Source of the DNA: a virus
Taxonomy: Duplodnaviria > Heunggongvirae > Uroviricota > Caudoviricetes
IMG/VR virus record: IMGVR_UViG_2874920711_000003
Direction: 5' to 3' (one strand)
Length of the DNA stretch: 36,999 nucleotides
The number at the start of each line of letters is the position of its first letter. Position 1 is the stretch's first letter. Under the pieces are notes generated by a model that made no database searches, was not told the origin of the DNA, and worked only from the letters and a program-made list of their open reading frames with translations. Shown here piece by piece: positions 2,174 through 28,283 of this stretch. The translations under genes and the position numbers were made by a program.

Positions 2174-2755
2174 TTACTCTGCAGGTGAAGTCGGCCACTC
2201 AATATCAGGTGCAGTTGATGTATCAACACGGTTCAATAACACCCGATACTTTTTCCATGCTTCCAGCAATGAGGTTTCTTCCTCCGTTGCAATTTCCAGA
2301 TCTGCAGCATCCTGAAGCGGCGCAATATGCTCACTGGCTACCTGCATCAGGCTGTTTTTTGTTTCTTCCGCCTCCCGGATCCGGAATAGTTTTTCTGCTT
2401 CTGCATCTTTCACCCAGGCTGTACCGTTCCACTTCTGATATTCCCCTTCCGGCGACAACCAGGTAACATTTTCCGGTAACGGACCGAGTTCAGAAATAAA
2501 TAACGCGTCCCCTGATGCCACGTCATAAACCGTTTTACCCCGATGGTCTTCAACGAGATGCCACGATGCCTCATCACTGTTGAAAACAGCCACGAAGCCT
2601 GCCGGAATATCTGGCGGTGCAATATCGGTACTGTTTGCTGGCAGACCTGTATGAGGCGGAATATATGCGTCACCCTCACCAATAAATTCATTAGTTCCGG
2701 CCAGCAGATTATAAATTTTTATGGTCCGTGGTTGTTCACTCATTCTGAATGCCAT
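2174..2755 (-). CDS. tfa: tail fiber assembly protein
   Basis: Intact 193-aa ORF immediately downstream of stf; sequence resembles lambdoid Tfa proteins. Confidence 0.9.
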
Positions 2756-4955
2756 TATGCAAGCCTCACAATATAGTTAAATGCGATGTTTTTGACGGTG
2801 TTTTCCGCGTTACCAGCAGCGTTAACGGTGATGGTGTGTCCATGTGAACCAATCGCAACGGAGTGCGTATGAGCACCAATACCGACAGTATGTGCATGTG
2901 CGCCTGCGCTTGCAGCAGTGCCGGACAGCGAGTGGGTATGAGCACCATCTGATGATGTCTTCCCTGCATTACGAGTCTGGCCACTACCGCTTGTTGTGCT
3001 CATAATCCCGCGCTTAGATTTGAAATCGCGGTATAACCATTAGGGAAAATGCTCGTGTTCGTGCCACCAAATGCACCGGAACTCTTGTGTTGGTGCGCAC
3101 CAGCACTATTTGCAGTCCCGCTAATACTATGGGTATGCGCCCCGGTGTTATTCGTGGATTTGGTTCCGTAATCAAACGACGATGTGGTTTTCGTACCCAA
3201 ATCCGTACTGGATGCGCTGGCGCTGTGGGTGTGCGATTTAATGCCGTCCTGTTCCTGAGACAATACGGCACGACCACTGGCGGGCTTGCCCTTAATCGTC
3301 CAGCCACGCATATCAGGGATCACGCCTGACGGATAAGCGACTGCAAGTTTCGGGTAGGCAGATTTGTCAAAAGTCTGCCCCTGCATCAGGGCATAGCCAG
3401 ACGGAACGGTATCTGATGGCCACGGGATTGGTGCGCCAGGCGGATAAAACTGTTCTGATGGCGTATAGAGTGAATAAACTGTACCGTCCGTTAACCCTTC
3501 CGGCTTATTAGCAGAATATGCTGGTGACGTATGAATCGTCACGCTGGCATTACTGGTATAATCCCATTGAATATTTACACCAGTCGCATAATTTCCGATT
3601 GCAACGTAAATATCGTAAGTATCACCAGATGTATTGACCCAGGCAAAATTTGTAAACCCTGTCGATGTGCGCTGCCATAAAGCACCAGTAATCCCTTCGG
3701 ATTACCATTACCTGCACGCAAAACAAGTTCAGATATACCTGCCTGTTGAGGTGACCCACGTTAAATCCAGCGCCACCAATCAACGTAATTGAAACAACAG
3801 AACTCGCCTGTGGCATGGTTACCGTTGCTAATTTGAACCAACCAGCACCACCGCTGAATGACATTGTTGTTGAGTTAAGCGTACCAATATCTTTCGGCGT
3901 CAGTGTTATATCCGCTGAAAGCGCCTTACCATTCACCTTACGGGCAGAAGGTACCCGACCATTCGCATTGTCATTAGCTGCTTTCACTGCTTTCGGTGTC
4001 GCAGCAAGCGTTTCAGATGTGCTGTTGGTTGCACTACTGAGCTGGACAATTCCTTTTTGTGCTGTCGTAGCGTCCTGTGCGGTGTATTTCCCGTTAGCCA
4101 GGTCATACGCGGCCTTAACGGCTTTTGGCGTTGCCGCCTGTGACTCGGAAGTGCTGTTAGTCGCACTGCTGAGCTGTACTATCCCTTTTTCGTCGTGCTC
4201 GCATCCTCAAGCGCCACGGCGGATGCAATATCCTCTGCCCGTTTTGCCGCTGTCTCAGCGCGCGTTGCTGCAGATTCCGCCGTACTTTTGCTCTGAGCTG
4301 CTGCCGTCGCACTACCAGCTGCCTCTGTCGCCTTCGTGGATGCCGTCGTGGCGCTACCCTTCGCTGCTGACGCCTGTCTGGTCGCCTCATCTTTTGAAGC
4401 AGACGCCGATGATGCCGATGACGCCGCCGAACTGGCGGACGATGCCGCTGCCGTTTTTGAGGATTCTGCACGGGTTTCCGACGCTTTCGCGTTCGTTTCG
4501 GATGTCTTCGCTGCGGAAGCTGACCTCGCTGCTGCCGTGGCCTGCTCAGTGGCTTCGCCAGCCTTTGTTGTGGCTGTTGAAGCGGATGATGCGGCGCTTT
4601 CTGCCGATTTTCCGGCGGCGGTGGCACTGGCTGAGGCCTGCCCGGCACTTGTTGACGCGGCACTGGCAGACGACGCAGCCGCTGTTTTTGAGCCTGCCGC
4701 AGCTGAGGCGCTCTGTCCCGCTGCCGTCTCAGAAGACTTAGCGTTCGTCTCGGACGTTTTTGCCGCCTTCGCGGAATTTCCTGCCGCCGTTGCCGAGGAA
4801 GCTGCGCTACTGGCGCTCGAGGATGCGTTCGTTTCTGATGATTTCGCTGCCTCTTTTGAGGCCGCCGCATCCCGGGCTGAGGTGGCAGCTTCTGACGCTT
4901 TCGTAGTCGCGGTGGATGCAGAAGTGGCTGCTGATTGTTGTGACTGGATTTGCCC

Positions 4956-5793
4956 CTATATTTCCAGACATCTGTTATCACTTAACCCATTACAAGCCCG
5001 CTGCCGCAGATATTCCCGTGGCGAGCGATAACCCAGCGCACTATGCGGATGCCATTCGTTATAATGCTCGAACGCCTCTGCAAGGTTCTTTGCTGCCGTT
5101 AACCCGTCTGGTTTGGGCATGATACTGATGTAGTCACGCTTTATCGTTTTCACGAAGCTCTCTGCTATTCCGTTACTCTCCGGACTCCGCACCGCCGTGT
5201 TCTTCGGTTCAAGTCCCAACATCCGGGCGAACTGGCGTGTTTCATTAGCCCGGTAGCATGAACCATTATCCGTCAGCCACTCCACTGGAGACGACGGAAG
5301 ATCGTTGCCGAAGCGGCGTTCCACCGCTCCAGCATGACGTCCTGTACTGTTTCACTGTTGAAGCCGCCGGTAGTCACCGCCCAGTGCAGTGCCTCACGAT
5401 CACAGCAGTCCAGCGCGAACGTGACACGCAGTCTCTCTCCGTTATCACAGCAGAACTCGAACCCGTCAGAGCACCATCGCTGATTGCTTTCTTTCACGGC
5501 CACTCTGCCTGTATGTGCCCGTTTCGATGGCGGTACAGCAGGTTTTCGCTCAAGCAACAGCGCATTCTGGCGCATGATCCGGTAAACACGTTTGGCATTG
5601 TTCGCAGGCATACCATCAAGTTCTGCCTGTCTGCGAAGCAGCGCCATACCCGACGATAACCATACGTGGGCAGCTCTCCGATAACATGGTGTATACGGAG
5701 AAGCACATCCGTATCATCAGTGTGACGACTGCGGCGGCCATCCATCCAGTCATCGGTTCGTCTGAGAATGACGTGCAACTGCGCACGCGACAC
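4956..5793 (-). CDS. insD: IS2 OrfB transposase (InsD), split into three frames
   Basis: Pieces 5494..5793, 5273..5647 and 4956..5324 together cover the recalled InsD sequence. Both frame breaks are single-G losses in G runs (at RRVW/ALLRRQ and VMLG/AVERRF). Confidence 0.85.
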
Positions 5794-26380: not shown

Positions 26381-26531
26381 GTTTTCTCCTCATGGACACC
26401 ACCAGTGCATAAAGCAGCAACAAACAGCCAGACAACATCAGAGACGCTGGCAGACCTGCATACAGATAAACGCCAGCAGTGAGCAGACCGAAACCGATCA
26501 GCCCGGTCATATCAGTAATAAGCTGTTTCAC
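26370..26531 (-). CDS. small hydrophobic protein (53 aa, GTG start) between terminase and portal
   Basis: VKQLITDMTGLIGFGLLTAGVYLYAGLPASLMLSGCLLLLYALVV...; single predicted transmembrane segment. Short and without strong support. Confidence 0.3.
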   Translation of the reverse strand: MKQLITDMTGLIGFGLLTAGVYLYAGLPASLMLSGCLLLLYALVVSMRRKHAS

Positions 26532-26577
26532 AGAATTAACAGGTCCTCATCAGGATCAAGCGTGGACAGAAAGTCAT

Positions 26578-28283
26578 TCACGTCCCGCCATTTACCAGAA
26601 AGCGGCTCATGGCCGTAAAAAGCGCAACAGGGCCGTCGATTTTGGCTTCCGGAGTGGATTTATTCGGGAAGATATTGTCGTTTTTGTCCGGTTTTACCGT
26701 AACGTTAGACATCATCCAGTTCATGACCGGATGATTGCTGTGGTGGAAACGTCCGGCATAAACCAGTGATTCCGTTTCCTTCATGGCCTCTGACAGATTG
26801 CGGACCGTCTGCGGAACCTCCACCAGCGGTATCCCTTCTTCAGCCAGTGCCAGGCTGAACTGCATCGCGCTCCACGGGTCAAATCCCAGTTCCCTGAGGT
26901 TTTCACCACCAATCCATTCCAGTAAGTCACTTTTTATCTGAGCATGATCGATAACATCACCATCCGTCAGAATCAGCTTATCCATCTCCGCCCACTTCCG
27001 GTAAAGTTCTGCCTGCTGCCGCGAGCATCGTTCCAGCCGTCCTTCCGGAAGCCAGAATTTAAAATCGGCATGAACATGCCCGTTATCGGTTCGCCAGAGT
27101 TTTGCCGCCGCGCAGATATCAATCTTATGAGCAAGGTCAACGCCGACCCACATGGGATACGTTTTCAGCTCATGTCGTGGGGCAATGTATTCGCACTTCT
27201 CCCACTTAATCATGTCCATCCAGGCAGACTCTGCTGTTACCCACACATTCATGTGTTTGGTAAAAAAATTCACCCGCGCAGAGACCTGTTCTTTCGCTTT
27301 TTTCGCCAGACGACGCAGATCATCCCAGCGTTTACAGATGCCCAGGCCGGGATTCGCTTTCTGCCAGACCGTCTCATCAAACGGATCATCTCCCTCATCG
27401 AGCGTGTAAATAATCGCAAAGTAGGAGTCGTCTTTTACCGCCCCTCCACGTCGCTGTTATAGCCTCGTAATACCTTGATGGCGTAATCGCGCTGCTCGTA
27501 ACAAATCCCTTCCTTGTTAAAGCCAGCCGTGGTGATGCCAAATAAAAGGGACTGCAGACGGGCACCGGTTGCCGTTTCCAGAACGTCCCACACGTCACGG
27601 GTTTTATGAGCATGCAGCTCATCAATAATGGCGCAGTGGATGTTCAGACCGTCCAGGTTGTTTGCATCCGAGGAAAGCGGTTCAAATTTTGATGCGCTCT
27701 GCTCCTGGTAAATCGCCAGCTTGTTGAAATCAAACAACCGCCCGAGTGTCGACCGGGCTTTTCTGACCATATTTTTGGCGTCTTCAAACACGATTCTGGC
27801 CTGGTCACGCGTGGTTGCGGCTGAATACACCTCAGCCCCGCCTTCACCATCTGCCCCCGTCATATACAGACCGATACCCGATGACAGGGTTGATTTTGCG
27901 TTTTTACGGGCGACTTCGTTGTACGCCGTCCGGAACCGGCGCACCATCACCGGGCGTCCGCTGCCATCGCTGCGCATGACAACTTCCCCGGTCTATTCAT
28001 TCACCAGCGGAATGACAAAACCAAAAATATTAATAAGGATAAATACATGCCAGTCCATCAACTCAATGGGCTGGCCTGCCAGCGCCCCTTTCACATGGGG
28101 CACAAATTTGTAGAAATTCAGGATGTGCTGCGCACGGGGTTCACTGAAATAAATCCCCCGCTCTTCGCCGTACTTCAGATCATCAAGAAAACGCTGGCAG
28201 GCCAGACGGACAAATTCGCCAGCGACAATTTCTCCTGCAACAACACGTTCGGCGTAGCGGATCCCGTCAGCCACTTTTGCCAT
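26578..28283 (-). CDS. terminase large subunit, split into at least three frames
   Basis: ORFs 27993..28283, 27435..27977 and 26578..27273; the middle piece has the ATPase-like ...LNIHCAIIDELHAH... region. Confidence 0.9.

Follow-up and report, generated by a model that had tools for sequence, protein, structure and literature searches.

The DNA analysed here is a window of 36,999 nucleotides (IMG/VR record IMGVR_UViG_2874920711_000003) holding a lambdoid prophage with an HK97-type head, whose genes lie on the minus strand and nearly all of whose long genes appear to be split between reading frames. These frame breaks are almost certainly consensus errors of the source assembly and not mutations: the consensus is without one base in a length-dependent fraction of its G/C runs, and this is the case across the chromosome. 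An earlier sequence-only reading had noticed the split genes and had proposed a systematic under-calling of homopolymers. Base-level alignment showed each of the genes it named to be broken by single-base deletions, and the proposal itself was sustained by the excess of deletions over insertions, by their concentration in homopolymers at a rate that rises with run length, by their equal presence in insertion sequences (IS), host genes and intergenic DNA, and by the reopening of the genes upon repair.

An exact protein match traced the window to assembly GCA_002949875.1, record CP026824.1, a chromosome of 4.97 Mb, and a search for publications mentioning the accession or the assembly returned none. 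It was aligned by base-level blastn with the best reference for each segment, namely L008 for the cytolethal distending toxin (cdt) genes, L001 for the phage structural genes, L007 for the late region, L003 and L006 for IS2, L004 for IS4 and L005 for IS600::IS30. Closer references were then added, L013 for the tape measure gene H (98.7% identity) and L002. For the phage genes, the closest complete Escherichia coli genomes were only 95-98% identical. Pairs of an insertion and a deletion that compensate each other within 12 bases of a divergent stretch were excluded from the counts as alignment effects or real variation (4647/4654, 13085/13091, 29769/29772, 29814/29817 and 36617-36627), and so was a 12-bp in-frame insertion in H (17524-17536). 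The gap at 2066 lies at an alignment edge and is unreliable.

Against these references, the window presents 55 unpaired deletions of one base and only two unpaired insertions. One of the latter, at 12285 in an intergenic run (A3/A4), is a polymorphism also present in L002, and no insertion was found in any G/C run of the window. The deletions span positions 5 to 36758, eight of them being intergenic. Forty-three fall in reference homopolymers of at least three bases, and in 40 of these the run is of G or C, although G/C runs of this size make up just 6.4% of the bases (binomial P = 9e-36). The remaining 12 looked non-homopolymeric when compared with L001, and it was predicted that many such sites would reflect a reference substitution beside a C run. 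This was borne out by the closer references, with 17187, 17268 and 19054 becoming C-run deletions against L013, and 13290 against L002, which raises the homopolymer deletions to 47 of 55. Among the other eight, four abut a C run (12622, 19036/19039, 22841 and 27442), one is the alignment edge at 2066, and only three (1616, 10128 and 25791) are truly outside any run. As a control, no unpaired indel was found in any coding sequence of two other prophage assemblies of the same type (21.7 kb, 95-99.5% identity). The proportion of runs that had been shortened, by their length in the reference, was as follows:

G/C runs: 3 bases, 4 of 535 (0.7%); 4 bases, 19 of 141 (13.5%); 5 bases, 13 of 34 (38%); 6 bases, 3 of 4 (75%); 7 bases, 1 of 1; 8 bases, none present.
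A/T runs: 3 bases, 1 of 684; 4 bases, 0 of 236; 5 bases, 0 of 104; 6 bases, 0 of 35; 7 bases, 1 of 11; 8 bases, 1 of 3.

For runs of at least four bases, this amounts to 36 of 180 G/C runs versus 2 of 389 A/T runs (Fisher P = 3e-17), and C and G runs on the plus strand were affected equally, without any strand effect. When true length is considered, all five G/C runs of at least six bases and about half of those of five had been shortened. The homopolymer error that had been expected is essentially specific to G/C runs: runs of five to eight T (0 of 101) and of five or six A (0 of 44) were untouched.

The missing G and C bases point to an error of long-read consensus building. In the mechanism that is proposed, the base caller or the consensus step would drop one base from some G/C homopolymers, more often as their length increases, and each base dropped within a gene would give rise to an apparent frameshift. 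Long genes would consequently look split into two to eight pieces (mostly two to four, more for H and IS4), and the whole chromosome would be affected. The platform that seems to fit best is an insufficiently polished PacBio continuous-long-read assembly, because the events are deletions only, in G/C runs of 3-7 bases, with A/T runs spared up to a length of six. The density of 0.8-1.5 errors per kb corresponds to about 4,000 to 7,000 errors in the genome as a whole and, because it is so high, the assembly was probably made at low coverage or left unpolished. PacBio-specific homopolymer deletion artefacts have been described (PMC5488171), and PacBio-only assemblies were reported to contain systematic single-base deletions, mostly of G or C and in homopolymers of 4-6 bases, by which even essential proteins are cut short in spite of a high coverage (PMC8574707). 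The continuous-long-read assemblies of the latter work, which describes ARAMIS, resemble the present one in that there are only deletions, mostly of single G or C bases, in a fraction of the runs of about 4-6 bases, and that conserved host proteins are truncated. They differ in that the density found here is high for a polished assembly, and in that the platform is, in our case, one that we infer.

The alternative that survives best is that the artefact stems from another platform, such as nanopore R9, 454 or Ion Torrent, which we regard as unlikely but deserving of consideration. The errors of these three technologies affect long A/T runs no less than G/C runs, and the flow-based ones over-call as well as under-call. 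In the window, the events are deletions, and shortening was seen in only 2 of the 8 runs of seven or eight A and, as described above, in none of the long T runs, versus 13-38% of the G/C runs of four and five bases. It is true that all these platforms miscall homopolymer length, and the reports on nanopore-only bacterial assemblies (PMC9262707, PMC8812927) depict a situation akin to that found here, with homopolymer indels that lead to apparent frameshifts and inflated pseudogene counts, and that are worst in repeats, in which polishing is unreliable. In contrast with those assemblies, the errors here hardly occur outside short G/C runs, with long A/T runs almost unaffected. The published PacBio profile matches (PMC8574707).

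The consequences of these deletions for the individual genes are summarized below, with all genes on the minus strand unless they are described as intergenic or late.

1-1692, minus strand: cdtC, cdtB and cdtA, with deletions at 5 (C6 to C5, in cdtC) and 1616 (a single A, no homopolymer, in cdtA); cdtB is intact.
2113 (C4 to C3) and 2132 (G4 to G3): two intergenic deletions, outside any coding sequence.
2755-6915, minus strand: stf, with four C4 to C3 deletions (3007, 3693, 3755 and 4183) and an IS2 insertion.
9080-12237, minus strand: J, with one non-homopolymer deletion at 10128 and an in-frame deletion of 255 bp.
12298-13583, minus strand: I (two deletions) and K (one deletion), at 12622 (beside a C run, ambiguous), 12833 (C5 to C4) and 13290 (C6 to C5 versus L002).
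14287-17131, minus strand: M, with a deletion at 17084 (G5 to G4), interrupted by IS600::IS30.
17109-20314, minus strand: tape measure H, with seven deletions, namely C5 to C4 at 17187, 17268/17270, 17605, 18410 and 19290, C4 to C3 at 19054, and the loss of a T beside a C4 run at 19036/19039.
20361-21033, minus strand: tail chaperones G and T, with a deletion at 20652 (C4 to C3).
21770: intergenic, A7 to A6.
22153-23260, minus strand: gp10-like, head closure and head-tail connector genes, with deletions at 22389 (C6 to C5), 22841 (T beside CCC) and 23234 (C3 to C2).
Within 23337-25162, minus strand: major capsid, with deletions at 23495 (C5), 23561 (C4) and 23961 (C5).
Within 23337-25162, minus strand: prohead protease, with deletions at 24761 (C4), 25017 (C5) and 25083 (C4).
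25155-26380, minus strand: portal, with a deletion at 25791 (GCGCTGG to GCCTGG, no homopolymer).
26528-28283, minus strand: large terminase, with deletions at 26583 (C5 in the references) and 27442 (G beside CCC), and a TAG at codon 97.
28802: intergenic, A8 to A7.
31141-33170: late region, with deletions at 31392 (C6 to C5, in a TolA-domain gene), 31741 (G7 to G6), 31839 (G4 to G3), 32369 (G5 to G4, intergenic) and 33170 (G4 to G3, between the two transfer RNA (tRNA) genes).
36758: intergenic, C4 to C3.

The missing base was put back at each site and the reading frames were re-examined. The repair yielded uninterrupted full-length open reading frames (ORFs) for cdtA, I, K, H, the gp10-like gene, head closure, connector, capsid, protease, portal, J and the TolA-domain gene. 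Removal of IS2 and one copy of its target duplication, together with the restoration of four bases, gave an uninterrupted stf ORF of 2832 bp, and M without its insertion and one copy of the duplication, and with its base restored, gave one of 357 bp. The transposase genes of IS4 and IS30 likewise became open once their bases were restored. After repair, only the nonsense codon of the large terminase still breaks a gene. The sequence-only reading had placed the breaks between 2755 and 28283, an interval in which errors do abound but which proved too narrow, as they reach from 5 to 36758 and elsewhere in the chromosome; the head closure, gp10-like, cdtA, cdtC and TolA-domain genes, along with the G-T overlap, are broken in addition to those it had listed. 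The loss of one G from a run of five in M was found as it had been described. For the connector, the position was right and the run was not, the change being CCC to CC on the plus strand (GGG to GG in the sense of the gene) instead of A6 to A5.

Three IS insertions, all with proper ends and target-site duplications, lie among these genes:

4945-6272, minus strand: IS2 in stf, of 1328 bp versus 1331 bp in the references, with a 5-bp target duplication, GTGAC.
7626-9042, minus strand: IS4 between lom and J, flanked by the repeat CACCATTTCTGGTG.
14530-17015, minus strand: IS600 with a nested IS30, in M, with a 3-bp duplication, CTG.

The comparison of these copies with reference elements, which had been suggested as a check, uncovered deletions together with very few substitutions, the substitution divergence of the IS copies being only 0.3% (99.7% identity). 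IS2 carries three deletions, at 5329 (C3 to C2), 5644 (C3 to C2) and 5828 (C4 to C3); these are the two GGG to GG changes in insD and the GGGG to GGG change in insC that the earlier reading had named, and their correction restores both orfA and orfB. The IS30 transposase is split by a single deletion at 15932 (C4 to C3). IS4 was affected most, with nine deletions (7672 G4, 7707 G3, 7714 T3, 8514 G5, 8701 G5, 8708 G4, 8811 G4, 8874 G4 and 8887 C5) versus 4-5 substitutions over 1,426 bp. Elsewhere in the chromosome, another copy of IS4 (L011) has eight of these nine deletions in common, does not show the deletion in TTT, and displays two more of this type. One would not expect a transposase carrying nine frameshifts to spread.

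The second IS4 copy lies 4.5 Mb away in the same record, within 20 kb whose conserved genes are 98-99% identical to those of E. coli, and 18 kb of this host DNA were analysed. In this region, sodC, ydhK, pdxY, gstA and several paa genes are broken by 1-bp deletions in G/C runs. The proportions of shortened G/C runs (0.9%, 12% and 25% at lengths 3, 4 and 5) match those of the window, and none of 545 A/T runs was changed. The errors thus hit coding, intergenic, IS and conserved host DNA alike across the assembly.

These results bear upon the idea of a genuine decay of a cryptic prophage, in which slipped-strand mutations would have accumulated within an IS-rich, Shigella-like genome. The prophage is truly defective, since stf and M are interrupted by IS insertions with target duplications and the large terminase has a nonsense codon. 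The neighbouring accessions CP026808, CP026816, CP026818 and CP026821 are plasmids of Shigella dysenteriae, a lineage known for its pseudogenes, and the source of the window is probably a Shigella or E. coli isolate of that submission. In that respect, the window resembles the pseudogene accumulation seen in Shigella and in cryptic prophages, since stf::IS2, M::IS600::IS30 and the terminase nonsense codon appear real. However, natural decay would be characterized by substitutions far in excess of indels, by gains as well as losses, and by damage to dispensable DNA only, and what was found is nine deletions versus 4-5 substitutions in IS4, 55 deletions versus two insertions, and broken host genes. 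The 55 deletions are devoid of a natural mutation spectrum and extend to IS, host and intergenic DNA; the same per-run rates hold for host genes 4.5 Mb away and for multi-copy IS; A/T runs are spared; and nine frameshifts affect IS4 in at least two copies. In addition, five of five G/C runs of at least six bases and about half of those of five are shortened, yet the substitutions in the IS amount to only 0.3%, and a shortening so near saturation at 99.7% identity is beyond any mutational process. Decay is, hence, very improbable as the source of the frame breaks.

A hypermutator strain, for instance one deficient in mismatch repair, could be imagined to carry thousands of true homopolymer indels. 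Indels do concentrate in homopolymers in the window and their rate climbs with run length, which is the same general trend found in mismatch-repair-deficient lines. Nevertheless, E. coli deficient in repair show both gains and losses of bases, with strong effects on A/T runs, and this signature, of both signs and in A/T as well as in G/C runs, was not found in the window, where there are almost no insertions and A/T runs of 3-6 bases changed in only 1 of 1,059 cases. Furthermore, several thousand frameshifts would break most genes, which is hard to square with a viable cell, and this explanation is accordingly given hardly any credence. The same slight weight is attached to the notion that the assembly is faithful and records a true genome-wide burst of -1 deletions in G/C runs, caused by an undescribed replication or repair defect specific for such runs.

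The tail chaperone genes deserve separate mention because a programmed -1 frameshift is used there. The G-T pair has a slip site of the A8G type (GGTTAAAAAAAAG) followed by the stop codon of G (region 20640-20700). Between this slip site and the coding part of T is the deletion at 20652, in the annotated G-T intergenic spacer. The stretch concerned is translated in the fusion made by the -1 frameshift, and the loss shifts T out of the -1 frame and into the +1 frame with respect to G. The G-T fusion protein would, therefore, be mispredicted from the window as given. Programmed frameshifting or functional phase-variable tracts were rejected as a general explanation, their likelihood being minimal, given that the true -1 sites of the window (the A8G site of G-T and the annotated ones of IS2 and IS600, both of the IS3 family) account for none of the 55 deletions, that the deletion at 20652 destroys the -1 relation of G and T, and that thousands of related genomes have these tracts, of just 3-6 bases, intact.

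Several observations weigh against regarding all the deletions as consensus errors. The errors are recognized by comparison with relatives that are 95-99.7% identical and not from the strain's own reads, and the deletions at 1616, 10128 and 25791, which are neither in nor beside a homopolymer, may be real. The density of the errors is also uneven, with 8 in IS4 versus 2.7 expected (P = 0.006), and none in each of the J, portal/terminase and lysis regions, where about 3.4 were expected (P about 0.03 each). The relation between density and repeat content, for which 15 regions were tested, gave a weak signal from which no conclusion was drawn.

Some lesions do persist beneath the errors. The large terminase has a TAG at codon 97 (CTA on the plus strand, 27993-27995) where its relatives have Glu. 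It survives correction and, because it is a substitution and not an indel, is probably a true inactivating nonsense mutation. The advice that no pseudogene call should be trusted except for IS insertions has, consequently, at least one likely exception in this change near 27995. J is 255 bp (85 codons, in frame) shorter than in L001 and L002, at about 10200-10215, with its junction inside an imperfect direct repeat (GCGGGCTGTGGTTTC / GCGGTATGTGGTTTC) whose copies are 255 bp apart in the references. This loss between domain repeats is probably real, although it may alternatively represent a repeat collapse in the assembly. The 12-bp in-frame insertion in H is seen in comparison with L001 and L002; it is considered a natural polymorphism and not an error because the closer relative L013 has it as well. 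In the host region, paaJ presents a 13-bp deletion between short repeats (L011 15381), and a transposase gene of the DDE_3 family, part of an IS, lies at L011 18698-19729, separating the aligned portions of paaX and paaY. In contrast to the neighbouring single-base deletions, these two lesions look real.

Regarding the IS elements, four substitutions (5375, 5601, 5999 and 6186) separate the IS2 copy from two E. coli references for this element, all of them complementary transversions (G to C, A to T, G to C and T to A), an unusual spectrum that may correspond to a lineage variant or to another type of error. At 99.6-99.7% identity, the same IS600::IS30 composite is present in roughly a thousand chromosomes and plasmids of E. 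coli, and it seems to move or persist as a unit. The junction between IS4 and J had no exact match among the species-representative genomes scanned.

As for the layout of the prophage, its left end contains cdtC (partial), cdtB and cdtA of a type I cytolethal distending toxin, followed by the tail, head and terminase genes, and its right end contains lysis genes, two tRNA genes, Q, rusA, a DUF968 gene and hokD. The cdt genes (1-1692) sit just beyond the tail fibre assembly gene, cdtC being cut by the edge of the window, and this region shares 99.3% identity with a cdt-I locus of E. coli. The two tRNA genes lie upstream of Q, at 33068-33144 and 33244-33319, and were identified by ARAGORN as tRNA-Arg (tct) and tRNA-Met (cat). 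RefSeq has the second as tRNA-Ile in a 99%-identical relative, and it is presumably of the type with a lysidine-modified CAT anticodon.

Taken as a consensus artefact, the finding is an ordinary data-quality problem and not a biological feature, but it has practical consequences. Gene calls, pseudogene counts and claims of genome decay that are based on GCA_002949875.1 are badly inflated, and fragments from this assembly already sit in large protein collections as separate truncated proteins. In frameshift scans of this record, G/C runs of at least four bases should be masked, or the record should be dropped. The structure resolved by long reads can be trusted, and this includes the IS insertions and the target duplications that flank them, the nested IS600::IS30 and the layout of the cdt-carrying prophage. 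The prophage is genuinely defective, with IS2 in stf, IS600::IS30 in M and, probably, a nonsense codon in its large terminase, and it is far less degraded than the raw sequence implies.

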